Source: Patescibacteria group bacterium (GTDB lineage: Bacteria > Patescibacteriota > Minisyncoccia > Phycocordibacterales > EsbW-18). Taken from it: a stretch of DNA of 61,277 nt. Positions 5,689 through 49,090 of this stretch are shown here, piece after piece. Positions within the stretch are counted from its first letter, which is position 1; every line of letters starts with the position of its first letter. Both the position numbers and the translations under genes were made by a program. The notes beneath the pieces were generated by a model. It ran no database searches, was not told the origin of the DNA, and was given only the letters and a program-made list of their open reading frames with translations. The stretch spans positions 4,980 through 66,256 of the forward strand of contig JBBTUJ010000001.1 of the NCBI GenBank assembly GCA_038063815.1, written 5' to 3'.

Positions 5689-6753
5689 ATGGGAAAAAAG
5701 GTCTCAAAAGTAAAAGTAGTCAAACCGATTGCGGTAAACTTCAATCCAAAAGCAGTTACCAAGCGCCTCCTTGGTGCGCTTACAACGCGTGCAAAAGACG
5801 TAATCATCAAACGCTACGGATTGGGTGACAAAACGAAACGAATGACACTTGAATCTATCGGCGGAGAATATGGAATCACCCGCGAACGAGTTCGACAGAT
5901 CGAAAACTATGCACTCCAGACGATTCGTAAGGCGGACGCGTACAAGAAAGAGGCGGGTGTCTTTGAACTGCTCAAAGAAGAAATGCTTTTCTTTGGCGGC
6001 ATCGTTTCCGAGGAACATTTTCTTGAACACCTTTCAAAAGAGGGAAGCGCACGAAACCATTTTCACTTCCTTCTCGTTGTTGGCGATACATTTGAAAAGA
6101 GAAAAGAGGATGACCACTTCGAACACCGTTGGCACGCAGATGAAGATATTGCTGAAAAAGTCGAAGACGCATTGAAGCGTATGTACGAGAAACTCTCTGA
6201 CGAGGAGTTGCTGTCTGAAACAGAGATCATCAAGATGTTTCTCGATCACGTCAAAGATCTTTCCGATAAGTATCGCGATGAAGAGATGGTAAAACGATGG
6301 CTCTTGATTTCAAAAAAGATTGGTAGCAATGACCTGGGCGAATGGGGCCCCTCTGCATCTCCCTCGATAACACCGAAGGGTATCCGCGACTATGCATATC
6401 TTGCGATCAGAAACCACGGTTCACCGCTCCATTTCACGGAAGTCGCAAAGCGGATTGAAGAACTGTTTGACAAGAAGGCGCACGTTGCAACGGCACACAA
6501 TGAACTTATCAAGGATGAACGCTTTGTACTTGTTGGACGTGGTCTCTACGCTCTCTCTGAATGGGGATATGTTGAAGGGGTTGTGCGCGATGTCATCAGA
6601 AAGATCCTTAAGGAACACGGCGCGCTCACTAAAGAGGAAGTAATCGAAAAGGTTCTCAAAGAACGCTACGTGAAGCCGAATACCATTCTCGTCAATTTGC
6701 AGGACAGCAAGCACTTCTCAAAGAAGGGTGACGGCACCTACACCCTCAACTAA
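5689..6753 (+). CDS. Sigma-70 region-4-like HTH plus C-terminal winged-HTH (HARE-HTH/RNAP delta-like) protein
   Basis: 'RYGL...MTLESIGGEYGITRERVRQIE' is a sigma-70 r4-type HTH. C-terminal 'PLHFTEVA...TAHNELIKDERFVLVGRGLYALSEWG'. Start placed at ATG 5689. Confidence 0.75.
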   Translation: MGKKVSKVKVVKPIAVNFNPKAVTKRLLGALTTRAKDVIIKRYGLGDKTKRMTLESIGGEYGITRERVRQIENYALQTIRKADAYKKEAGVFELLKEEMLFFGGIVSEEHFLEHLSKEGSARNHFHFLLVVGDTFEKRKEDDHFEHRWHADEDIAEKVEDALKRMYEKLSDEELLSETEIIKMFLDHVKDLSDKYRDEEMVKRWLLISKKIGSNDLGEWGPSASPSITPKGIRDYAYLAIRNHGSPLHFTEVAKRIEELFDKKAHVATAHNELIKDERFVLVGRGLYALSEWGYVEGVVRDVIRKILKEHGALTKEEVIEKVLKERYVKPNTILVNLQDSKHFSKKGDGTYTLN

Positions 6754-33365: not shown

Positions 33366-33420
33366 AAACCACAAAATCCAAATACTTGCAAAACTGAGGG
33401 AGGAAAGTATACTCCGTCTA

Positions 33421-33846
33421 GTTTGCATTGGGCAGATGCGCCCCGCCTCGGCGGGGTGAGGAAAGTCCGAACACTCTCTTCGTAGCAATACGAAGAAACA
33501 AGGTAACGGGTAACGCCCGTCCGGAGCAATCCGTGAGGTGCGAACAGTGACGTTCTTTTTCGAAAGGGAAAGAACACCCTTCGGGGTGAATCCTTATGGA
33601 AACATGAGGAGTGAAACGGCCAAATCCTTACCCGAGTGCAAGGCCGCGTCAGCTTGCGCTTCGCACAAGAACCGACAACCAACGACAGACGACCCACAAG
33701 AGAATCCAAATTCTTGTTGTGTGTTGTAGGTTATACGTTGTTTGTTCCTGCGCGGAGCGCAGGTTGAAGAGCCGCTTGACCCCGAGAGTAATCGCGGGGC
33801 TAGATACATGTCTGTCGATAACAGAATTCGGCTTATAGATGCAAAC
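33421..33846 (+). ncRNA. rnpB: RNase P RNA (with a heptad-repeat hairpin insertion)
   Basis: GAGGAAAGTCCG near the 5' end, AACAGAATTCGGCTTATAG near the 3' end, and terminal P1 pairing gtttgcat/atgcaaac. Confidence 0.95.
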
Positions 33847-33922
33847 ATCATCATGGCCACCCGCACACCGCGGGTGGTTGTGTTTTCTGCTACTATATAT
33901 ATGTAATGACCACGGTTTCTGT

Positions 33923-38567: not shown

Positions 38568-40310
38568 ATGGACTACATACAGAAAATAACCGCTACACGC
38601 TGGAAGCATATCCAGCTTGATAAGCCGGTCGAACTCGAACCTGGAATTAACCTGATTCTGGGTAAAAATGGAAGTGGCAAGACCTCACTTATTGGGATGA
38701 TTGAGGCGGCAGCGGTGACTCAGGCTCAGCCGCTTCGCCAAGAGGTTCTTGATGCATTTGCTGAAGGCGCTCGACTTTCCAGTATCGAACTACGGTCAGG
38801 GGAGACTGATGTTGTTATAGGTAACGACAGACGGGGTAGCGAGGGACACTGGACTGCTAGCGATCTTAAGGATCGGCTCCGAACAATTGGATCTGCCCGT
38901 TCGGTTACTAGTGGCACTAGCACCAAAAATCCTTTTGCGAGTTCTATCACTATGGATACTTCCGGGCTTGCTGTTGGCCAAACTATTGATGTCGCTGAAG
39001 AGTTCAACAAATCGATTATAAAAGAACTCATTGAGGTCATTAAAGAAAAGATGGCCGCTGGTACAGACTTTCTTGAGGAGATTCAAAAAGACTACCAAAA
39101 CGGCCTAGTTGATTTCGATAAGGTGCTAAAAATAGACCCGTCTAAGGAGAACGCAGTATTTTTCGTTGACCATCTCGATAGAGAAGTTTCCATCACAGAG
39201 CTGAGTTCGGGCGAAAAGGAGTACCTCTATTTTTACTCATACCTCCGCCGGATTCGAGCAGACGAAAACAAGATTATTCTTATTGACGAGCCGGAACTTC
39301 ACCTCCATAGCAGCCAGATAAGGAAGCTGTGCGAACTTATTGCTGGTCTGGCAGTTAAAAACCAAGTCATTATCGCAACGCATTCCGGTGAGGTACTTCA
39401 GCATTTCATTTCTCGCGCAAACATAATCCTGCTCAGTAAAGGCGTAGTTGATAGGATTCAAGATGCGGAACAAATGAGAAAAGCTCTTGAGGAGACCGGC
39501 CTACCTATCGACCCATCCGTTTTCACAGCACACTGGATCTGTGCCGAGAACGACCCCACCGTGTCTCTTCACGGCGGAGGGCCGACTACTCCAGAGGTCC
39601 TAAGTTGGATTCTTGGAAACGATTTAAACAAGCGGTATTGGTCTTTTGGGTCTAATAAATCCACCTCGAAGATTTACGGCGAAGGTATAGCCAGTGCGTC
39701 TCCAGCGGCGCATAAAATTCGTGTCACACCTCTACTGGACGGGGACGTTCTTGCCAAAACTCCGGCAGACTATTTTCCTGCAACCATTCCTGCACCAGCG
39801 AATAACCTAGCCTACTTTCCTTTTTGGGAGATAGAGAGCGCCTTTCTCAGTACTGCGATACTCAATGCCATAATTCCAACCGAAGGAGGCGTTACGGGTG
39901 CGGATAGGTTCTGGGCAAGCGTTACTACCAATCAAGCAAGACTCCTTCTCTACATAAAGAAGACTGTCGCAAAGAACAGCCTTAGGCGATTTAGCTTGGA
40001 TAAATATATTGAAGCTGACCCACAAGTTGACATAGAGAAATGGAAAACTGAAATTCAGGCGAGTGTCACTGATCTTTCCCCGATTGATACGAAATTCGCA
40101 GAAGTTATAGCTGTTAAAAACTGGCGTTGGTTGCCCGGCAAAGAAGCCCTCGCACTGGCCATTATCTTGGAGCCAAACTTCTGGACAAAGCTTAGAAACC
40201 TGCAACAGAGCAAGGAGCTTAAAGCCCTTCTCGAATTGGACGCTGGTATGAAAACGTTTATTGAAAGCATGTCTGCGCTTTCAGGAGAGGTTCCCGAAGA
40301 GGCAGAGTAG
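38568..40310 (+). CDS. ABC-type ATPase fused to a putative TOPRIM-like nuclease (OLD/PARIS-like)
   Basis: Walker A GKNGSGKT, signature LSSGEK, Walker B ILIDEPE, H-loop ATHS. C-terminal acidic motifs CAEND and LLDGD suggest TOPRIM (inference). Confidence 0.7.
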   Translation: MDYIQKITATRWKHIQLDKPVELEPGINLILGKNGSGKTSLIGMIEAAAVTQAQPLRQEVLDAFAEGARLSSIELRSGETDVVIGNDRRGSEGHWTASDLKDRLRTIGSARSVTSGTSTKNPFASSITMDTSGLAVGQTIDVAEEFNKSIIKELIEVIKEKMAAGTDFLEEIQKDYQNGLVDFDKVLKIDPSKENAVFFVDHLDREVSITELSSGEKEYLYFYSYLRRIRADENKIILIDEPELHLHSSQIRKLCELIAGLAVKNQVIIATHSGEVLQHFISRANIILLSKGVVDRIQDAEQMRKALEETGLPIDPSVFTAHWICAENDPTVSLHGGGPTTPEVLSWILGNDLNKRYWSFGSNKSTSKIYGEGIASASPAAHKIRVTPLLDGDVLAKTPADYFPATIPAPANNLAYFPFWEIESAFLSTAILNAIIPTEGGVTGADRFWASVTTNQARLLLYIKKTVAKNSLRRFSLDKYIEADPQVDIEKWKTEIQASVTDLSPIDTKFAEVIAVKNWRWLPGKEALALAIILEPNFWTKLRNLQQSKELKALLELDAGMKTFIESMSALSGEVPEEAE

Positions 40311-40315
40311 GTTCT

Positions 40316-41641
40316 CTATTTCTCAAGCGCGATTTGCCGGTCCTTCAACACCAGCGTGCTCTTGAGACAGGACAGTAGCTCTCGCTTCTCCGTGATCGTA
40401 CCCTCCTTGAGAAGATACTTGGCGTATTCGCGCAGGTCGACATCGCTGCTGCGCTCCTTAGTTTTCATGCCGAGCACGCCGATACGGAATTTGTTGTATC
40501 GCGATATCTCATCACGGATCTTCTCTTTCATGCCGATCTCGTCGAGGTCGATGGTATCGAGGAGCTTGACCAGTTCTTCTATGAGATCCGTTTCGTTCAC
40601 GGGCGGGTTCTTGCAGTCGATGTCTTTCGACCGCGTGCACCTGTAGTAGACATGGCGGTTCACGCCGCCGTCTTTAAGTTTCTTGAACTTCTCGTCTGCC
40701 GTGATGCCGCTTCCGCATACACCGCAGGCGATCAATTTCGTGAAGGCGAATTCCTTGCTCTCGGTTTTGGGGATGTACTGATCTTGGATTGACTCCTGCA
40801 CCTTGTCGAAAAGTTCCTTGGTGATGAGTGGCTCATGTTTGCCCTGATACCAATTGCCGCTCCCGCGCGGGTACTCGAATTCACCGTAGTAGAAGGTGTT
40901 GCGAATGACGGTATACAGATTCCCAAGCGAGAGGTGTTTGCCAGTATGGGTCTTGAAGGCGTTTTTCGTGAGCCAGCGATGTGTTTGCCGTCCACTCCAT
41001 TTCTCATTGCCGATTTTCTCGAAGATCTTCCGAATAGTCGCGGCACGCTTCGGGTCGACAATAACCTCGCACTTGCGGTCTGTACGTTTTTCATTGAGGT
41101 AGCCAGTTGGTGCCGTTGATGGCCGCAGACCCATTTCGCAGCGGGCTCGTAGCCCGCGCTTCACATTGATGATTTTCTGGTCGTTCTCGAGCTTCGCCTG
41201 CGAGCCGAGAATCATGAGCATGAACTTCTCGTTTGGATTGTTGGTAAAGGCCTGCGTGAAGGTGCGTATCTCGACCAGCTTCTTTTGATCCAGGAGATCG
41301 ACAACCGCACCCAAATCTCCGGCGTTGCGACTGAGCCGATCCGGTGCCCACGTGAGGATACCGTTGAACTTCTCCTGCCGGATATCCTCGAGAAGCTGGT
41401 TATACACCGCCCGCTGGCCTACTTCCTTGGAGGAGTGCGACTCGCGCTTGACCTCGACGATCTCAAGATTCTCGCGCGTGGCGATGGCGGTCATCTCTCG
41501 CACTTGGGACTCGATGGAAAGCGCCTGTTTGTCCTCTTCCTCGGTGCTCTTTCTTGCATACAGGCAGTATCGGACCTTTACGGGCACGGGGACGGCCTGC
41601 CTGTTAATGCCGCCAACGGGAGCCCTTGTTGCTGTGTTCAT
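40316..41641 (-). CDS. Large serine recombinase (resolvase, recombinase and Zn-ribbon domains)
   Basis: 'YCLYARKSTEE' catalytic Ser, 'DRLSRN', 'PTGY', 'HEPLIT', 'CGVCG...YYRC...C'. Start placed at ATG 41641. Confidence 0.93.
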   Translation of the reverse strand: MNTATRAPVGGINRQAVPVPVKVRYCLYARKSTEEEDKQALSIESQVREMTAIATRENLEIVEVKRESHSSKEVGQRAVYNQLLEDIRQEKFNGILTWAPDRLSRNAGDLGAVVDLLDQKKLVEIRTFTQAFTNNPNEKFMLMILGSQAKLENDQKIINVKRGLRARCEMGLRPSTAPTGYLNEKRTDRKCEVIVDPKRAATIRKIFEKIGNEKWSGRQTHRWLTKNAFKTHTGKHLSLGNLYTVIRNTFYYGEFEYPRGSGNWYQGKHEPLITKELFDKVQESIQDQYIPKTESKEFAFTKLIACGVCGSGITADEKFKKLKDGGVNRHVYYRCTRSKDIDCKNPPVNETDLIEELVKLLDTIDLDEIGMKEKIRDEISRYNKFRIGVLGMKTKERSSDVDLREYAKYLLKEGTITEKRELLSCLKSTLVLKDRQIALEK

Positions 41642-41739
41642 ATACCACAAGGGATGACGCGAACAGTCCTAGGAGTCAAGAGCGTCCGAGGGGCTTGGAG
41701 TTGGTAACTTTACTGGCTCAAAGTTGCTAGAATAGTCCC

Positions 41740-41858
41740 CGCAACCGAATACCTGGCCTAACCTCGCCTTCGGGCGAGCATGGTCAAAAACCATCCAAGG
41801 AAGCTTCCTCGCACGAGGACTCGGCCGTTGGCCGGATCTGGATGCGAGGTTTTCTTTT
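41740..41858 (+). ncRNA. Candidate small RNA, motif copy 1
   Basis: Extended -10 TGCTAGAAT (41725-33). GCCTAA, hairpin ctcgcc-ttcg-ggcgag, CATGG-N7-CCATCCAAGG, then a cctcgca/tgcgagg stem and U-tract. Confidence 0.5.
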
Positions 41859-42906
41859 ACTCGGTGCGCCAGAACCAGTATCGGTTGTATACGTCCTGAC
41901 GCAGGCGGTATGCGTCGGCATGACTGAGTACGCCCATGTACGAATTGAGGCAGGACTCGAGCGTCAATTCGCTTATCTCCCCACGCTTGTAGGCACGAAC
42001 GGCTTGGTGCAGCTTTCGTGGAATCCGGCGTTTGGTCTTCGCACGAAGCTGCACGTGATTCGGCAACATGATGTAGCCGAGAAAGTCCACGCCACGCGTA
42101 TGCCTCCGCAATGTTATTTTCTTCGGATGTAACTCCAGCAGTAGTTTCTCTCGCAGAAAGTCTTGCATTGGCGTAAGCAAGTCCTCAAGGTAGCTCTTGT
42201 CGTTAGACACAATGATAAAGTCGTCCGTGTATCGAGCGTAATGTTTGACTTTCAACTCACGCTTCACGAACTGATCAAACTCATTCATGTAAATGTTCGC
42301 AAAGATCTGCGATGTCAGATTGCCGATTGGCACGCCTCGTCGCTCGAACAGATTCGGTCTGCTTGCGGAAAAGCTCTCGACGATCTCATGCATCAGTCTC
42401 ATGACCTTCTCGTCCTTGATCTTTGTGCTGAGAATCCCTAGGAGCGTGTCGTGGTCGATAGAGTCGAAGAACTTTCTGATGTCGCACTTGAGTGCGTAGC
42501 ACGGACGCGTGTTGTTGCGACTCACGGCGCGTATGACTTGTGCAACCCACCGCACGCCCTTGTGTGTTCCTTTGCCAAGACGGCAGGAAAACGACGTTGG
42601 GATGAAGGTCGGTTCAAAGATGGGGTTGAGCACGCTGAAGATAGCGTGGTGAAGCACGCGGTCGCGAACCGTCGCCTTATGAATGTGACGCACTTTAGGG
42701 TCGTGAATCCAGAAGCCCCTATACGCTCCGTGTTTGTACGTGCCATTCTTCAGATCTCGGTACAGGCCAAAGATGTGTTGCTCGATGTCTACCCCGAATT
42801 CCGCCACGTCAGGTTTGTTCCGCTTGTCGCGCTTGAATACCTCCCAAGCTCGAAACAACGTCTGCGGAGAGATTATTAACCAGCTTAGATTCTTATAAAC
42901 CTTCAT
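41857..42906 (-). CDS. DGR-type reverse transcriptase
   Basis: 'VRDRVLHHA', 'CDIRKFFDSI', 'GVPIGNLTSQIFAN', 'RYTDDF' and 'GVDFLGY'; 349 aa with no maturase or endonuclease domain; adjacent to avd, TR and VR. Confidence 0.93.
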   Translation of the reverse strand: MKVYKNLSWLIISPQTLFRAWEVFKRDKRNKPDVAEFGVDIEQHIFGLYRDLKNGTYKHGAYRGFWIHDPKVRHIHKATVRDRVLHHAIFSVLNPIFEPTFIPTSFSCRLGKGTHKGVRWVAQVIRAVSRNNTRPCYALKCDIRKFFDSIDHDTLLGILSTKIKDEKVMRLMHEIVESFSASRPNLFERRGVPIGNLTSQIFANIYMNEFDQFVKRELKVKHYARYTDDFIIVSNDKSYLEDLLTPMQDFLREKLLLELHPKKITLRRHTRGVDFLGYIMLPNHVQLRAKTKRRIPRKLHQAVRAYKRGEISELTLESCLNSYMGVLSHADAYRLRQDVYNRYWFWRTE

Positions 42907-42909
42907 AAC

Positions 42910-43260
42910 ATGAGTGATTTAGACATACCCATCTTCAAAAAATCCTACGATCTCTACAAAGAGTTCTACGGACTCCGCCTCTCGGTGCCGAAGCAAGACC
43001 GCTATACGCTCTGGCAAAAGTGCGAGAATCTGCTCATCGACATCCTTGAGGGCATTCTCCTTGCGAGCCAGCAGTCAAAGTCTGAGAAACTGCCGACCTT
43101 GGAGAAAGCGAGCGTGAAGCTCAACTTCATGCGGGTCTGCGTGCGCCTGTTGAAAGACGTGAAGGCAATCGACGACAAGAAGTACGTGCTCATTGAGGCG
43201 GACCTCGATGAGATCGGTCGGATGCTGGGTGGGTGGATCAAATCCACAAAAGAGCGTTAG
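42910..43260 (+). CDS. avd: DGR accessory variability determinant (Avd, four-helix bundle)
   Basis: 116 aa; 'IPIFKKSYDL', 'PKQDRYTL' and C-terminal 'EIGRMLGGWIK'. Confidence 0.9.
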   Translation: MSDLDIPIFKKSYDLYKEFYGLRLSVPKQDRYTLWQKCENLLIDILEGILLASQQSKSEKLPTLEKASVKLNFMRVCVRLLKDVKAIDDKKYVLIEADLDEIGRMLGGWIKSTKER

Positions 43261-43261
43261 T

Positions 43262-43290
43262 AGAAACTCCCGCGTGAAGCGGGAGTTTCT
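43262..43290. terminator. 12-bp hairpin between the avd 3' end and the TR 3' end
   Basis: agaaactcccgc-gtgaa-gcgggagtttct. Confidence 0.75.
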
Positions 43291-43313
43291 CACTGTGGAT
43301 GGAGGTATGACTG

Positions 43314-43428
43314 CCTGGCGGACGACACACCGATGTTGCTGTTGCGGTTGTTGTCGTTCCAGTTGTTGACGTTGAGACCCTTGGCGTCGAAGTTGCCGAC
43401 GTTCACGTGGTTGCCGTCCGAGTCGAGG
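43314..43428 (-). ncRNA. DGR template repeat (TR), 115 nt
   Basis: Aligns without gaps to 43816-43930; contains 11 in-frame AAC codons and 32 adenines. Confidence 0.95.
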
Positions 43429-43756
43429 TAGCTGCCCGTTCCCATCCGTGGCACCAGCACTCGAGGTTTGCCGCTCTTGCGAGCCTATATCCTCTCACGC
43501 CTGTATTTTATTCGAGAGCAGATTCCTTGCGGAACCATCTCCCCCTAGAAACGGGCAAGAAGTTCTCTCCATCCTTAATCGCACGCTGCCGTGATCCGTA
43601 AACCACTGGCACTCTGGCGATATCTCAAGGTGAGATATCTCGCGAGCGTGAACCGTAACCCACGCTACATTAGCAAGATTCAAAAAGTATAGTGTATCTG
43701 TATAAAAAACGAAAGCCCCCGGCACACTCTCCGACCGAAGTCGAAAAATATGCGCG

Positions 43757-43800
43757 GAGGCTCAAGACCTCAAGAGGGACAAGCCCTCAAGCGGTCAAGG
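43757..43800 (-). promoter_or_regulatory. Candidate DGR target-recognition hairpins 3' of VR
   Basis: gaggg-acaag-ccctc (43774-88) and gagg-ctcaaga-cctc, about 27 nt past the VR end. The stems are short, so the role is inference. Confidence 0.4.
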
Positions 43801-43809
43801 TTCAGAACT

Positions 43810-44607
43810 TCACTTCCTGGCGGACGACACACCGATGTAGCTGTGGCGGTAGTAGTCGTCCCAGCTGTAGACGTAGAGACCCTTGGCGCCGAAGCCGCCG
43901 ACGAGCACGCGGTCGCCGCCCGAGTCGAGGCTCGACGTACGCACGTAGACGTTCGCGAAGAGCCGGATGCCACGGACCTCGAAGTACATGGTGATGAACC
44001 ATGACATCTCGGCAGCGTTCGGCACGCTCTCGACACCCGACAGGAGCTTCTCCTGCTCGCTCCAAGTGCGGTTCGTCGAGTTCGGGACCGGCGTCTTGCG
44101 GATGGCGAGCCACCCGAACGACGTCTTGTCCTTGCTGGCGAACTCCTGGTCCGCGTACCAGCCGCCGGTCTTGCTGTAGAAGTGATTGGTCACGAGCTGG
44201 CGGACGTCCAGGAGCGACATCGCCGTTGGTGGCGCGGGCATGACGGCGTAACCGTTGTCCTTGCACCACCGCAGCATGTCGGCCGAGGGGATGCTGGCCG
44301 CGAGCGTCGCGATCTCGTCGTTGGTATAGGCGACACCACGACGAGTGGCCATGATCTCCTCCGGCGTGATGAAGTCCGCGCCGAGGATGGACTGAGCCAG
44401 GATGTAGTCAGGCAGCTTGGCCGAGAAGCGGCGGATGCCCTCGATGACCCAGTCCTGGAACTCACCACCACGCCCGATCAGGCGCTGGATGGCGTCCTTG
44501 TCGGGGTTCACCTCGACGAGAGCACGGTCACCCGTGTCCTCGACAAAACGCTTGAACTGCTTCTCTTGCGGCTGGGTGCGGTCCGACGTGATCGACTGAG
44601 TCGTCAT
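43810..44607 (-). CDS. DGR target protein (265 aa), C-terminal variable region, presumed CLec-like fold
   Basis: Start at ATG 44607 after SD aaggag. The last 38 sense codons before the final Lys form the VR. No signal peptide or TM helix. Confidence 0.9.
   Translation of the reverse strand: MTTQSITSDRTQPQEKQFKRFVEDTGDRALVEVNPDKDAIQRLIGRGGEFQDWVIEGIRRFSAKLPDYILAQSILGADFITPEEIMATRRGVAYTNDEIATLAASIPSADMLRWCKDNGYAVMPAPPTAMSLLDVRQLVTNHFYSKTGGWYADQEFASKDKTSFGWLAIRKTPVPNSTNRTWSEQEKLLSGVESVPNAAEMSWFITMYFEVRGIRLFANVYVRTSSLDSGGDRVLVGGFGAKGLYVYSWDDYYRHSYIGVSSARK
43816..43930 (-). repeat. DGR variable repeat (VR), 115 nt
   Basis: 16 mismatches versus TR, all at TR adenines; invariant 3' tail atcggtgtgtcgtccgccagg. 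Confidence 0.95.
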
Positions 44608-44751
44608 CGTCTGCTCCTTGTAGGTCACTACCATCCGCTTTGGGCGAACGATAACTGTCTCGGAATGAGACGAGTGTTTTAGGGACTTATGAAAATCCAC
44701 AAAACACTCGCCTCATTCAAGTTCTGAATTGAGAAGGAGCTTCTGGTGTAT

Positions 44752-44780
44752 ATAGTACCATAACGGTATACAGAAGTCAA
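44752..44780 (-). promoter_or_regulatory. Sigma70-type promoter for the DGR target gene
   Basis: Minus strand TTGACT-N17-TACTAT. Confidence 0.65.
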
Positions 44781-44878
44781 GAGTTGGTAACTAGGCTTCG
44801 CAGGGCCCTATTTCTAAGCTATAAGGGACATAGAAATTCGGCCTAAAAATGGTAGTATTTCTTTAACAACTGAATAGA

Positions 44879-45048
44879 GCCTAAACCCTCCGTTGGAGGG
44901 CATGGCGTTGAATCCATCCAAGGTAAACACCCCGTCGTCAGGGTTCCTTGGATGGTCGTAGGGGGAAACCTCTACGTTCTGGCCGAAAGGCTAGAGCTCC
45001 TGGCGGCGGGCTTTTTGCTACCCGCTGGGATAAATCCATCCAAGGAAC
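44879..45048 (+). promoter_or_regulatory. Structured 5' leader of the RM methyltransferase (motif copy 2)
   Basis: GCCTAA, hairpin ccctcc-gtt-ggaggg, CATGG-N8-CCATCCAAGG, two GAAA-capped hairpins, and gttccttggatgg complementary to ccatccaaggaac over the SD. Confidence 0.6.
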
Positions 45049-46761
45049 ATGTCTGATAATAAAGTCGAGCTCATCACTCGCATCGCAACACTCGAATCTG
45101 AAATACAGCGGCTTAAGCGTGCCAAGACGTATGGCCTCGTCTGGGAAGATAAGCCAGAGGACGTAGTCGTACAGTGCAAAGCGAATATTCCGGTCCTCAA
45201 AGAAGTGAAGACGCGGAAGATCGTCACGGACGAATCCCTTCCCACAAATCTCCTCATCGAAGGAGACAACTACCATTCGCTCTCGGTCTTGAACTACACC
45301 CACCGAGGCGGCTTTGACGTCATCTATGCCGATCCTCCATACAACACTGGCAATAAAAGCTGGCGGTACAATAACGATTACATAGAAAAAGATGACGGGT
45401 TCCGCCACAGCAAATGGATTTCATATATAGAGAAAAGATTGAGGCTCTCTAGATCATTACTCAAAGATGACGGAGTGATAGTCGTTACGATTGATGACTA
45501 TGAAATAGGCACATTGAGGCTACTCTTGGATGAAATCTTCGGCGAAGACAATCGACTTGGGCTTATTACGATAATGCATAATCCGCGAGGAAGAAGCGAT
45601 GACCAATATTTTGCGACTTCCCACGAATACGCTCTCTTTTATGGAAAAAATCCTGATAAGGCAATAACGTATAAGCTCGATCTTACACAGGAGCAGCGAG
45701 AATTATTTCCGCTGACCGATGAATTTTCAAACTACCGACTCCTTCCTCTTAAGAGAACGGGCTCCAACTCAACACCGAACGAGCGACCTAAATTGTACTA
45801 TCCAATTTTTGCAAATAAAAAATCTGGTGAGATCAGTATTAAAGAACGCGTGGGCAAGGATTGGTTGGTGATCGAACCTAAAGATTCAACCGGCGCAAAG
45901 CGTGTATGGCGCTGGGGCAAAGAAAAAGTTCAAAGAGAATGGAAAACCGAGCTGATTGCCAAATTCAAAAATGATAAATGCTCGATATTCACCAAGGACC
46001 GCATAAAGGAGGGACGGAAGCCGAAGACGATTTGGGTTGATCCAAAATATGATGCTTCTTCGCACGGAACAGTGTTGCTTGAAAATATCTTAGGCGAGAG
46101 GAAAGTTTTTGATTATCCGAAGTCCCTCTACGCAGTAATCGATACACTCAAAATTCTAACGAAAGAAAAAAGAGATGCTTCAGTTCTCGACTTCTTCGCT
46201 GGATCTGGCACCACCGGTCACGCAGTCTTTGAACTCAATAAGCAAGATGGCGGAAATCGTCGTTTCGTTCTTTGTACGAACAACGAAAACAATATCTGCG
46301 AAGAGGTAACGCATAAACGGCTTGAGCACGTCATTAAGGGCTATAAGGACAAGGGTGGTCAGCTGGTTAAAGGTTTGGGAGGCGATTTGAGATACTACAA
46401 AACCGACCTCGTCAGCACCGACAAACTCCAGAAGATATCTGATGAAGCTCGAATCAAGGTGACGTACCAAGCCGGTGAGATGATCGCGCTTCGCGAGGAC
46501 ACACTGACGGAAACCGAGAAAAACGACTGGTGGCAGATCTTCGAGGACCACGGGCGCATGACCGCCATCTATTTCAAAGAGGACAAGGCGAAGCTATCCG
46601 AGCTTGTGGCAAAACTTGAACAGAAGAATATTCCGGTCGCCCTATACATCTTCAGCTGGGGTAAGAACGAGTATCGGGGCGAGCTCGGAAGCGGCACGAT
46701 CCGCGTCGAAGATATTCCCGAGCCGATCCTTGAGGTCTATAAAGAAATCAATCGCCTGTAA
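45049..46761 (+). CDS. Type III restriction-modification methyltransferase (Mod)
   Basis: 'NLLIEGDNYHSL', 'ADPPYNTG', 'FDYPKS' and 'VLDFFAGSGTTGHAV' (beta-class N6-MTase order); followed by Res. Confidence 0.9.
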   Translation: MSDNKVELITRIATLESEIQRLKRAKTYGLVWEDKPEDVVVQCKANIPVLKEVKTRKIVTDESLPTNLLIEGDNYHSLSVLNYTHRGGFDVIYADPPYNTGNKSWRYNNDYIEKDDGFRHSKWISYIEKRLRLSRSLLKDDGVIVVTIDDYEIGTLRLLLDEIFGEDNRLGLITIMHNPRGRSDDQYFATSHEYALFYGKNPDKAITYKLDLTQEQRELFPLTDEFSNYRLLPLKRTGSNSTPNERPKLYYPIFANKKSGEISIKERVGKDWLVIEPKDSTGAKRVWRWGKEKVQREWKTELIAKFKNDKCSIFTKDRIKEGRKPKTIWVDPKYDASSHGTVLLENILGERKVFDYPKSLYAVIDTLKILTKEKRDASVLDFFAGSGTTGHAVFELNKQDGGNRRFVLCTNNENNICEEVTHKRLEHVIKGYKDKGGQLVKGLGGDLRYYKTDLVSTDKLQKISDEARIKVTYQAGEMIALREDTLTETEKNDWWQIFEDHGRMTAIYFKEDKAKLSELVAKLEQKNIPVALYIFSWGKNEYRGELGSGTIRVEDIPEPILEVYKEINRL

Positions 46762-46762
46762 T

Positions 46763-49090
46763 ATGTTCGCTCTCAAACCATTTCAGGAAGTAGCTGTCTC
46801 GAAACTCAAGAACGAGTTCCTCTCACTCTGGAAGTCACCGCACGAGAACATCCCGCTTGTTTTTAAGTCACCGACGGGATCGGGCAAAACGATCATGCTC
46901 GCGCAGTTCCTTCGAGATATCGTCGGCGACCCACGCTTCCAAGGTAATGATGTCGCGTTCCTGTGGTTCTCGTTCAGCGAAGACTCATACCTCCAGAGCA
47001 AGGGCAAGCTCTTTGATTACTACGGCGGCGCATCGGAACTCGACCTGTTGGATCTTAACGACCTCACCCGAGGGAAGCTTGAGCGAAACAATGTCTTTTT
47101 CATCAACTGGCAGAAGATTAAGGGAAAATCGAAAGAGAGCCGCAAGCTTCGGCGCGACAACGAGTGGGACCTGACCTTCGACAGCTTTATCAACAAGACC
47201 CACGAAGCGAAGCGGAAGCTGGTGGTCATCATCGATGAAGAGCACATCGGCTCCGATACCGATCTCGCGCTTGAACTGGTGAATGGGCTCATCAAACCAA
47301 AACTGATCGTCCGTGTTTCTGCGACCCCGAAGTACATCCCGAATGCGGAAGAGATCGCCGAGAAGAAAGGTGGTTTCGTTCAAGTAAAACGAGAAGAAGT
47401 AGTGGAAGCCGGATTGATCAAGGAAAAGATCGTATTCCAGACCGAGGAAGACCTGAACAGGAAAGAGCTAAAGGATATGGATCAGGACGAGATCCTTCTT
47501 GAGCTTGCATACCAAAAACGTCTTGAGCTTGTACAGCACTACAAGGCACTTAATATCGATATCAATCCGCTGGTCCTCATCCAGCTGCCGAACGACGATC
47601 AGGAAAGCACCGCGACCAGCACCAACAAGCGCGGTATTGTCACGCAGTTCCTCAAAGCAAAGGGTATTGGCGAGGAAGAGATAGCTGTCTGGCTCTCTCA
47701 GGAAAAAACGAACCTTGAAGACATCGAACAGAATGCTTCTCCTGTGTCATTCCTGCTCTTCAAGCAAGCCGCAGCGACCGGCTGGGACTGTCCGCGCGCG
47801 GGCGTGCTTGTGATGTTTCGAGAAATCCAGAATCCCACCTTCGCGATTCAAACCGTTGGTCGCATTCTGCGAATGCCGTTAGGTATACACTTCCCGCGAC
47901 CGGAGCTGAACATCGGCTACCTCTATACCAACTACAAGCGCAACGAGGTGCTTGCGGAATATGCGAAATCGAAGACCGACAACCGACCGGCGATCTACGG
48001 CAGCCACCGCAAAGTGGACATCGTACCACTCCAAGTCGAGTCTATATTCATGAGCCGAACCGACTACAACGATCTCGGTGACAGCTTCCAAGACGTATTC
48101 AGCGAAACTGTCGATGCGTATTTCGGGATCAAAAATGCAGACACGAGGCAGTCTGTCTTGAAAAAGCTCAAAGAAAAGGATTTGGAGATCTCACCGATGC
48201 TGACGAACGGTCTAATCGTAAACGTGGAGATCGACGACTATGACAACTTCACCCATGAGCTGCTTGCGGAAGGGAGCAGCCATGAACAGGAGATATCGCA
48301 GTATGATCTCGAACGACTCTACAATCTGCTGTGCTTCAAGCTCATCGTGCGGCAAACCGATGAAAACAAGAAGTTCGCTCCAGAGCGATCGTGGGGCAAG
48401 CTGAAAACAGCTCTCAATGTCTGGCTCATGAAGCGCCTCGACCTGACGCGACAGGAGGTATATACGATTCTCGTCTATGACCTCCTCAATCCCACCAGCG
48501 TCCTCGCTCCGCTCATCGGAGAATCGCTCGGTTTGTACCGCCCTCTGCGGGAACGAGAGGTGGATAAAAAGTCGTCCCGCTCGAAGCGTACGGAGGTCAT
48601 CGAGATGCCTCGTGAATCATTCTTCTTCACTGATCAATACGAGGAAATGCGCGTGAAGAAGTGTGCGATGACCCCGTTCTATATCGAGAAAAGCTATGTA
48701 GGAGAAGATAACGAGAAGGAGTTCATCGCCTTTCTCGAACACCACAAAAACGTCCTGTGGTGGTACAAGAACGGCGATCTCGGGAGCGAACACTTCTCCC
48801 TCTCGTACTACAACCCCGAGGAGAACAAAGAAAGACTATTCTATCCCGATTGGATCGTGAAGACGAAGTCCGGCGTATGGATCATTGATACCAAGAAAGG
48901 AAGTACGGCTGAACTTATGGACACCAAGTACAAAGCTGAAGCACTGCAACAATGGGCTAAAGTCCAAAAGGGATTCCTGGCTGGCATCGCCGTACAAGAC
49001 GGTCCCAACGGATGGAAGATCAACACAGAAAAGACGTACACGTATACGCCCTCGTTGACCGGATGGAGAAATCTGCAGGAGCTGTTGTGA
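46763..49090 (+). CDS. Type III restriction endonuclease (Res; SF2 helicase plus PD-(D/E)xK nuclease)
   Basis: Walker A SPTGSGKT, 'IIDEEH', 'TGWDCPRA', 'QTVGRILR', C-terminal 'YPDWIV...IIDTK'. Start placed at ATG 46763. Confidence 0.9.
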   Translation: MFALKPFQEVAVSKLKNEFLSLWKSPHENIPLVFKSPTGSGKTIMLAQFLRDIVGDPRFQGNDVAFLWFSFSEDSYLQSKGKLFDYYGGASELDLLDLNDLTRGKLERNNVFFINWQKIKGKSKESRKLRRDNEWDLTFDSFINKTHEAKRKLVVIIDEEHIGSDTDLALELVNGLIKPKLIVRVSATPKYIPNAEEIAEKKGGFVQVKREEVVEAGLIKEKIVFQTEEDLNRKELKDMDQDEILLELAYQKRLELVQHYKALNIDINPLVLIQLPNDDQESTATSTNKRGIVTQFLKAKGIGEEEIAVWLSQEKTNLEDIEQNASPVSFLLFKQAAATGWDCPRAGVLVMFREIQNPTFAIQTVGRILRMPLGIHFPRPELNIGYLYTNYKRNEVLAEYAKSKTDNRPAIYGSHRKVDIVPLQVESIFMSRTDYNDLGDSFQDVFSETVDAYFGIKNADTRQSVLKKLKEKDLEISPMLTNGLIVNVEIDDYDNFTHELLAEGSSHEQEISQYDLERLYNLLCFKLIVRQTDENKKFAPERSWGKLKTALNVWLMKRLDLTRQEVYTILVYDLLNPTSVLAPLIGESLGLYRPLREREVDKKSSRSKRTEVIEMPRESFFFTDQYEEMRVKKCAMTPFYIEKSYVGEDNEKEFIAFLEHHKNVLWWYKNGDLGSEHFSLSYYNPEENKERLFYPDWIVKTKSGVWIIDTKKGSTAELMDTKYKAEALQQWAKVQKGFLAGIAVQDGPNGWKINTEKTYTYTPSLTGWRNLQELL

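Follow-up and report, generated by a model that had tools for sequence, protein, structure and literature searches.

The LOOT RNA (Rfam RF03000) originates from the work of Weinberg et al, 2017 (PMC5737381), where it is recorded as a motif from metagenomes that has numerous covarying pairs, and it is also named in the lists of PMC7779021 and PMC11701678. The main text of PMC5737381 describes no function for it, nor do the latter two lists, in which LOOT appears by name only; Rfam assigns the family the type "Gene; sRNA". LOOT is abundant in the candidate phyla radiation (CPR). Here we analyse a LOOT RNA in a 61,277-nt stretch of DNA from a Patescibacteria group bacterium (contig JBBTUJ010000001.1, positions 4,980–66,256 of the forward strand; hereafter the window, numbered from its first nucleotide), where the element precedes mod, the methyltransferase gene of a type III restriction-modification (RM) system. 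The window element is the same RNA as the recorded family, with P1 to P4 as in the model, and like the other matches it occurs in Patescibacteria (CPR). Beyond LOOT as recorded, we identified a leader-like gene context, a helix (X:X') before a U-run, a strand (Y'') lying over the next start codon in a subset of loci, a shorter variant that we call mini-LOOT, and synteny with a diversity-generating retroelement (DGR) and a serine recombinase. We consider that this LOOT, of which the segment examined (44914–45051) is the 3' part, is probably the 5' leader of mod and acts in cis as a riboregulator over the mod start, with two states and possibly two levels. This is the first concrete mechanism proposed for an orphan family.

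Several characterised regulators share features with the window leader, and in each case the likeness is one of functional analogy only. The leader carries two trios of strands, Y/Y'/Y'' and X/X'/X'', in which the middle strand can pair with either of the others. The same three-strand logic is found in translational riboswitch platforms such as that of the thiM TPP riboswitch, where a middle strand pairs with the upstream domain or with the ribosome-binding site (RBS) and the two states are near-isoenergetic; in contrast to these, the window leader has no known ligand, the genes downstream of LOOT are heterogeneous rather than belonging to one pathway, and the sequestering strand is present in a minority of loci. 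Attenuators of the trp type (1:2 / 2:3 / 3:4) are likewise built from overlapping, mutually exclusive segments, which in LOOT are the apical hairpin of P2, X:X' with the U-run, and X':X''. However, the terminator-like helix of LOOT, which spans ~56 nt, either has P3 and P4 inside it or is a pseudoknot, a leader peptide is absent, and X'' cannot act as an antiterminator because it lies after the U-run. The c4 RNA of phage P1 acts on the co-transcribed icd/ant RBS. The phage P1/P7 c4 RNAs (Rfam C4) resemble the window leader in having a co-transcribed antisense strand and RBS target, together with an upstream repeat of the target, but there is no C4 sequence or structure match, the LOOT interaction is most simply intramolecular and no processing signal was identified. 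The rpoS leader, in which the small RNAs (sRNAs) DsrA and RprA pair with an inhibitory strand and free the RBS, offers the logic by which mini-LOOT might act, with the difference that mini-LOOT, the candidate sRNA, is paralogous to the very leader on which it would act and belongs to the DGR cassette.

Layout and predicted folding of the mod leader

A cmscan search placed LOOT at 44878–44995 on the plus strand with a score of 77.2 bits, above the curated gathering score of 46.4 bits (E = 8e-13), and the match covers the full length of the model (positions 1–121). The structural features of the family are present at 44879–44996: P1 (44879–44906) with its conserved CCUAAaC...GCAUGG internal loop, a long P2, and two GNRA-capped hairpins, P3 (44957–44976) and P4 (44977–44996). 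In an alignment of 12 relatives, P2, P3 and P4 are each ~98% paired and show four doubly changed (covarying) pairs apiece. Upstream of P1 we identified a putative extended -10 promoter (TGGTAGTAT, 44850–44858, plus strand), from which transcription would start near 44864. TGnTAnnAT boxes occur at the equivalent place in most related loci, and the one in the window is among just four such motifs on the plus strand within 40–46 kb; a sigma-70 scan made no call for it. The interval between this box and P1 is occupied by a conserved 5' motif (AACAACUGAAUAG, 44865–44877, plus strand), which is present in most LOOT loci of the window's subclass (class W, defined below) and in a second small RNA of locus L247. 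On the same strand, mod (45049–46761) is a 570-residue open reading frame (ORF) with matches to Pfam N6_N4_Mtase (3.5e-29) and PADLOC MTase_III (8.6e-88), and the ORF that follows, res, extends to 49090 (PADLOC REase_III). The identification of a type III methyltransferase gene at this position, made earlier from the letters of the sequence (the original prediction), was therefore borne out.

All six strands lie on the plus strand. The 5' arm of P2, Y (CCAUCCAAGG, 44914–44923; the "anti-anti-RBS" strand), pairs with 44946–55, with 97.5% of aligned cells paired and double changes at four pairs. The apical part of P2 holds X (CCCGUCGUCAGG, 44931–44942), which pairs with X', and it is directly followed by Y' (GUUCCUUGGAUGG, 44943–44955), which consists of the 3' arm of P2 and a further 3 nt and, as the shared "anti-RBS" strand, has three possible partners. 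Beyond P4, X' (CCUGGCGGCGGG, 44999–45010), a C and UUUUU (45012–16) form the segment 44999–45016, which with X would make a long-range helix that resembles a terminator or, with respect to P2, a pseudoknot. Further along lies X'' (ACCCGCUGGGA, 45020–45030), with which X' can pair downstream; it is followed by Y'' (CCAUCCAAGGAAC, 45036–45048), the third copy of the Y strand, which contains the AAGGA at 45042–46 that resembles a Shine-Dalgarno (SD) sequence and abuts the mod ATG at 45049.

The complementarity of Y' to each of its partners is perfect. The strand GTTCCTTGGATGG (44943–55) matches CCATCCAAGG (44914–23) over 10 bp, which is LOOT stem P2 (Y:Y'), and it matches CCATCCAAGGAAC (45036–48) at 13 of 13 bases (Y':Y''). 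Both pairings, with their positions and sequences, are as the original prediction had given them; it had treated the upstream one as the arm of a switch, and although that pairing stood, it proved to be a stem of a known Rfam family that had gone unrecognised. In addition, ACCATCCAAGGAA (41790–41802), the Y strand of mini-LOOT, is a 13-nt perfect complement of 44944–56. The exact 10-mer CCATCCAAGG occurs four times in the window against a mean of 0.11 in dinucleotide shuffles (0 of 100 shuffles reached four), and all four copies fall within the two related RNA units.

The minimum free energy (MFE) fold of 44870–45065 contains the downstream pairing, with the SD and AUG buried (-88.4 kcal/mol, z = -5.6), and in the ensemble the probability of being unpaired is ~0 at 45040–45048. 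An X':X'' hairpin is also part of the MFE structure of the read-through RNA. A fold in which P2 was forced was close in energy, at -82.3 kcal/mol, X:X' being worth about -25 kcal/mol as a duplex. For Y', the duplex energy was lowest with Y'' (-24.4 kcal/mol), followed by the Y of mini-LOOT (-22.1) and Y (-17.9). When the chain was folded as it grew, P2 formed with the transcript end at or before 44998, X:X' with the end at 45011–17, P2 together with X':X'' at 45032, and Y':Y'' together with X':X'' from 45052 onwards. The calculated folds shift from P2 to Y':Y'' as the transcript lengthens; co-transcriptional folding was among the checks that the original prediction named. Two mutually exclusive helices thus share one strand, and one of the two covers the SD and AUG.

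Based on these folds, we suggest an order of events for the mod leader. P2 would form first as the transcript grows, followed by X:X', a terminator-like helix that would either make a pseudoknot with P2 or replace it. Read-through would then give P2 together with X':X'', and finally Y':Y'' together with X':X'' would switch translation off. While Y:Y' is paired as P2, the mod start site would be free, whereas pairing of Y' with Y'' would bury the SD-like AAGGA together with the nucleotides that follow as far as the AUG. Completion of the LOOT fold would in this way keep the anti-RBS strand occupied and the mod start open, and loss of the fold would close it; the terminator-like step may act before the RBS switch. 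The strongly conserved internal loop of P1 and the pseudoknot are candidates for the sensor. Membership of LOOT, the complementarity of the three Y strands and its conservation with covariation have been demonstrated; we infer that the pairing exerts translational control, that transcription terminates at the U-run and that some factor (a ligand, a protein or an RNA) chooses the fold. The window supplies a defined test piece, 44864–45070.

Conservation of the strand over the start codon

We searched one genome per species with a P1 pattern and obtained at least ~74 distinct LOOT loci, nearly all from Patescibacteria; counts given for this genome set hold among the matches listed. A loose form of the pattern returned mostly chance matches on viral contigs, and the pattern was then tightened. 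A second pattern, made from P3 and P4 only and containing neither Y nor Y'', retrieved 43 metagenome loci and 2 loci from the viral collection that belong to the window's subclass (class W). Among the 38 distinct leaders of this P3/P4-selected set, 12 contain a stretch of 9 nt or more that is exactly complementary to the Y' of the same leader and starts at +71 to +82 nt, and in 10 of these 12 an ATG lies within 0–5 nt downstream of Y''. None of 1080 comparisons with non-self controls reached 9 nt. The genome set contains a Y'' match of at least 9 nt in 6 of 73 LOOT loci, against 0.8% per control pair, and duplex-energy z-scores pick the same loci as the match-length test. Two further Y'' loci, of Y type CCGTCCAAA, were reached by retrieval anchored on the reverse transcriptase (RT) protein. 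Overall, about 10 Y types are found over 17 loci, with Y'' placed 71–82 nt after Y' and once 109 nt after it, and 0–5 nt ahead of an ATG; these types differ among loci and match within each locus (CCATCCAAGG, CCGATCAAG, CCGTTCAAGG, CCGGCTAAGG, CCGTGCAAGG, CCCGCTACAGG, CACAGGACAT and CCTAGACGAATA). All Y''-bearing loci that were rescanned score above the LOOT threshold, seven besides the window at 56–93 bits. Among the matches listed, L258, a locus from a groundwater assembly, is identical to the window, and L152 (Saccharibacteria) has a nearly identical leader, Y'' included.

In a MAFFT alignment of 12 leaders that bear Y'', the Y':Y'' helix is 89% paired overall, its 11 core pairs are ~100% paired and four pairs are doubly changed; 0 of 500 shuffles and no slid control reached the observed values. 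The non-Watson-Crick pairs in the interior of the helix are exclusively U.G. This recurrence with covariation in homologous loci indicates that the pairing of Y' with Y'' is more than a local coincidence. Because the pairings of Y' are mutually exclusive and the one that covers the RBS is conserved with compensatory changes, a cis-acting RNA switch is the best reading of the locus. The hiding of the RBS of mod by an alternative pairing, as first proposed from the window sequence, thus gained support from both the covarying Y'' of the relatives and the MFE fold. We conclude that the mod leader is probably a LOOT with a variant expression platform, situated here at the border of a DGR cassette.

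Several points weigh against this interpretation. The 12 aligned leaders were chosen for having Y'', so the covariation must be read with the unbiased counts (12/38 and 6/73), which are the real test. Nested folding cannot score the X:X' pseudoknot, and the energy balance between the states is approximate. The idea that Y'' is always the stronger partner was rejected: Y and Y'' are roughly equal as partners of Y' across the loci, with comparable energies, and the default state is therefore not predictable. Y'' is absent from ~90% of LOOT loci in the genome sample, and a sequestering helix conserved with compensatory changes is a property of a LOOT subset only; the RBS strand is an add-on and not the core function of LOOT. 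In L284 and L286, Y'' has no SD-like purine run, and given these two loci the hiding of an SD may instead be the hiding of a start region. The window leader was found in no RNA-seq run searched, and metatranscriptome contigs over the related LOOT of L247 run through the promoter and define no 5' or 3' RNA ends.

The original prediction had also tied the switch to the establishment of an RM system. This part did not hold up, because the near-identical leader of L152, with its Y'', precedes a gene resembling PDC-S11. RM specificity is further undercut by related leaders that stand before an HNH nuclease gene, genes for small membrane or secreted proteins and still other genes, and by the lack of Y'' in most LOOTs. 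Up to and including Y'', the entire leader is common to the window and L152, as are an inverted repeat and the DGR target gene (46% identity); divergence starts right after Y'', where the window continues into mod-res and L152 into the PDC-S11-like gene (PADLOC). Given the common DGR target gene, the leader can be called "portable" on its downstream side only. The inverted repeat, at 44663–44688 and 44693–44718, lies at the 5' end of the DGR target gene and has 26-nt arms that are 85% complementary; in L152 it carries an 11-nt loop insertion. Matches to a group I intron (67–69 bits) were observed a few kilobases from two other Y''-bearing leaders, at 391–606 on the minus strand of L177 and 40–224 on the plus strand of L279.

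The second trio and the gene context of LOOT

X:X' is a 12-bp helix, 99.3% paired in the 12 relatives; five of its pairs covary and two are conserved as U.G. Across the family (69 loci of the genome set), the self duplex has an energy of -20.6 kcal/mol against -11.8 kcal/mol for non-self combinations, and nearly all LOOTs end in X:X' and a U-run. Relative to P2, the helix is predicted to be either a pseudoknot or an alternative structure. A scan for compact hairpin terminators made no call at 44996–45020 on the plus strand; the conserved GC-rich X:X' helix ends 1 nt before UUUUU. The downstream partner X'' is detectable in ~45% of LOOT loci.

In 63 of the 69 loci the gene after LOOT lies on the same strand, and the upstream gene is mostly divergent. 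Start codons are found ~25–45 nt past the U-run, which leaves no room for a promoter. From the orientation of the next gene and this short distance, it follows that the behaviour of LOOT is that of a 5' leader carrying a terminator-like element, not that of a free-standing sRNA. The genes that it precedes are heterogeneous and encode small membrane or secreted proteins, nucleases (HNH among them), methyltransferases and an Ltp-like lipoprotein; many belong to no family. The leader position, the use of the 3' arm of P2 as an anti-RBS in a covarying subset and the pairing of the P2 apex with the segment before the U-run suggest that the "sRNA" label should be revisited.

The closure of nearly every LOOT by X:X' and a U-run, like the filing of the family as an sRNA, would also fit a mechanism modelled on c4, in which a LOOT RNA terminated at the U-run acts as a separate small RNA on the Y'' of read-through mod mRNAs that arise at the same promoter, and represses their translation. 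Antisense strand (Y') and target (Y'') do lie on one transcript, with an upstream target repeat (Y). In the terminated RNA, however, Y' would be paired to Y or held inside the X:X' multiloop and would therefore offer no exposed seed, and the constant 71–82 nt between Y' and Y'' better suits an intramolecular junction. No extra Y'' sites were found elsewhere in the window or in the 8-kb loci, and no Rfam C4 match was obtained in the window at the gathering score or in 41400–45200 at E <= 5. We therefore regard this arrangement as improbable. A search of the rest of the window for trans targets gave two copies with one mismatch (2017 and 7996), both within coding sequence and away from start sites.

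Other observations concern the 5' half of LOOT and its surroundings. In L196 (889–2717), three tandem modules consisting of P1 only are repeated with a period of 898 nt, each directly before the SD and ATG of one of a set of paralogous genes, which indicates that P1 can serve as an element of the 5' untranslated region without the rest of LOOT. L247 encodes a second small RNA after LOOT (5878–5990), with the 5' motif ACAACUGAAUAG, its own TATAAT box and a terminator; it is strong in a wastewater metatranscriptome, with contig depth up to 324, and is followed at 6144 by a truncated ORF for a Dam-like methyltransferase. A conserved block (AGTCAAGAG, GTTGGTAAC, GCTTCGCA and CTAAGCTATAAGG) lies upstream of the promoters of the two window units, at 44776–44830 and 41674–41710, and is also present in L152, L252, L177, L279 and L242; within it, TGGTAACTT resembles a second extended -10 box. 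The same GCCUAAAC-hairpin-GCAUGGC module was observed in alpha-proteobacterial tmRNAs, at their tag end, and in a conserved RNA of Clostridia, where it stands at the start (L122, L156, L163, L183, L227 and L234; L130, L176, L187, L229 and L235), perhaps partly as an effect of the search pattern. A kinship between P1 and tmRNA was considered and rejected, as the alpha-proteobacterial matches are explained by the pattern fitting the GCC-UAA of the tag end and its hairpin; ARAGORN found no tmRNA in the window.

Mini-LOOT, the DGR and the recombinase

The element that the original prediction called an sRNA is mini-LOOT, which spans 41725–41858 on the plus strand. It is composed of an extended -10 box (TGCTAGAAT, 41725–33), P1 (41756–85), a free Y strand (ACCAUCCAAGGAA, 41790–41802) and a 3' part in which CCUCGCA (41807–13) pairs with UGCGAGG (41843–49) before a U-run (41850–58), and it is convergent with the RT stop codon. 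With 25.2 bits and E = 0.07, it scores below the LOOT gathering score. Mini-LOOT is best called a LOOT-derived variant and not a member of the family: upstream boxes, P1, an A-rich linker and Y are common to both, P3 and P4 are missing and the short 3' part ends in a terminator. In the predicted structure, the 5' 7–8 nt of its Y are unpaired with a probability of ~1, and the 3' half is partly paired.

The cassette between mini-LOOT and LOOT is a DGR, with an RT gene (41857–42906, minus strand; RVT_1), a bAvd gene (42910–43260, plus strand) and a 119-nt pair of template repeat (TR, 43310–43428) and variable repeat (VR, 43812–43930) that are 86% identical; 16 of the 17 TR-to-VR differences are at adenines of the coding (minus) strand. 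The target gene occupies 43810–44700 on the minus strand, and 130-nt imperfect direct repeats flank the DGR. RT, TR and target share one strand and avd is on the other, with only 3 nt between the avd and RT start codons, and the same inverted avd occurs in L284, L286 and L288. Upstream of avd, the one good extended -10 box on the same strand as the gene belongs to mini-LOOT, and avd may be transcribed from the mini-LOOT promoter, antisense to RT.

We compared DGR layouts among RT homologues fetched with their flanks and the class-W loci that have an RT. The conserved layout consists of mini-LOOT abutting the RT stop codon in convergent orientation, the DGR, and a full LOOT on the mini-LOOT strand ~3.1–3.3 kb away that leads a variable gene. 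Mini-LOOT and LOOT bracket the DGR in this way in at least 11 loci, with RTs 57–93% identical to that of the window, and mini-LOOT is found at the same place in L256, L284, L286, L288, L290, L239, L250, L253, L254, L262, L276 and L282. Within each locus the mini-LOOT Y is complementary to the LOOT Y', over 13, 12, 11, 9 or 8 nt, and this match is kept in both the CCAUCC and the CCGUCC lineages. The mini-LOOT–DGR–LOOT synteny, in many cases with a serine recombinase close by, is unreported and may bear on the regulation of DGRs and adjacent defence genes in hard-to-culture organisms.

This complementarity raises the possibility that, on top of the cis switch, the mini-LOOT RNA (41740–41858) captures Y' of the mod leader in trans. 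Such capture would plausibly free the mod start, or open P2 and change termination, and thereby couple the DGR-adjacent gene to the DGR/recombinase cassette. The perfect 13-nt complementarity is consistent with this, the exposed 5' end of the mini-LOOT Y could be a toehold, mini-LOOT has its own extended -10 box and terminator, and the pair flanks the DGR with its match retained in both lineages. However, the mini-LOOT Y:Y' duplex is weaker than the intramolecular pairing with Y'' (-22.1 against -24.4 kcal/mol), and some of the 3' half of the mini-LOOT Y is itself base-paired. The two units are paralogous, so descent or gene conversion can explain their common Y, and the lineages differ at one position only, which makes the covariation perhaps a single event. 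Since most DGR-linked LOOTs of this clade are without Y'', release of the RBS cannot be a general role. Weighing these points, we consider capture in trans a tentative and rather doubtful addition to the cis switch.

A broader proposal takes LOOT not as an sRNA but as a widespread Patescibacterial riboregulator, a leader akin to a riboswitch with a pseudoknotted sensor, paired with mini-LOOT in one DGR family and coordinating DGR activity with expression of the neighbouring gene. Mini-LOOT, at the RT stop codon, would then serve avd as its leader, in the orientation opposite to RT and with read-through transcription antisense to RT. At the border of the cassette, the full LOOT would gate the variable gene, which often encodes a nuclease or a defence function, and the two RNAs would communicate via the Y/Y' strand. 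We think this unlikely.

A gene for a large serine recombinase (40316–41650) lies 105 nt from mini-LOOT, and a homologue is present within the 8-kb locus of 26 of 74 LOOT loci. When the four metagenome class-W loci with a homologue are added to these 26, the recombinase is upstream and divergent in 25 of 30, at 157–4660 nt. LOOT may mark the border or attachment region of recombinase-borne elements. The link to the recombinase/DGR locus in the original prediction is accordingly sound as synteny, through the mini-LOOT/LOOT bracket and the recombinase neighbourhood, and putative as regulation.

The proximity of the recombinase, the 130-nt direct repeats and the loss of synteny between the window and L152 exactly after Y'' could also be accounted for at the DNA level, with Y, Y' and Y'' as recombination sites for the recombinase or as scars of cassette insertion; the segment of 80 bp between Y' and Y'' could be invertible, or DNA could be excised between the mini-LOOT Y and Y''. 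Large serine recombinases are not known to need identical cores of 10–13 bp, which counts against this account. The Y'-Y'' segment has the same orientation relative to P1 in 51 of 51 class-W hits, and an inverton formed by Y' and Y'' was rejected for want of any inverted copy (0/51). Four metagenome assemblies of the source population give the locus in the same form as the window, and no excision or inversion joint was found at the repeats in them, a search of contigs only that rare variants could escape. Y'' also stands at start codons where no recombinase is in reach (L141, L145 and L182). Y and Y' form an RNA helix beyond question, with U.G wobble pairs and with hairpins beside it that have GNRA caps. 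A DNA-level origin of the repeats is thus very improbable, and the cis switch over the mod start is the reading that we retain. In a single DNA contig of run X3, position 44745 is joined to 44911, so that the leader promoter and P1 are missing; this contig perhaps derives from a paralogous locus.

The surroundings of the cassette have the look of a defence island, with a gene for an AriA/PtuA/GajA-like ATPase (38568–40310) and the type III RM system (45049–49090). In L284 (8564–13050), the same DGR and recombinase lie beside T5orf172, ResIII and MmeI-type genes. The window also contains nine tRNA genes and a class A RNase P RNA (33420–33851, 119.6 bits) with an insertion of ~70 nt in the P15–P18 region.

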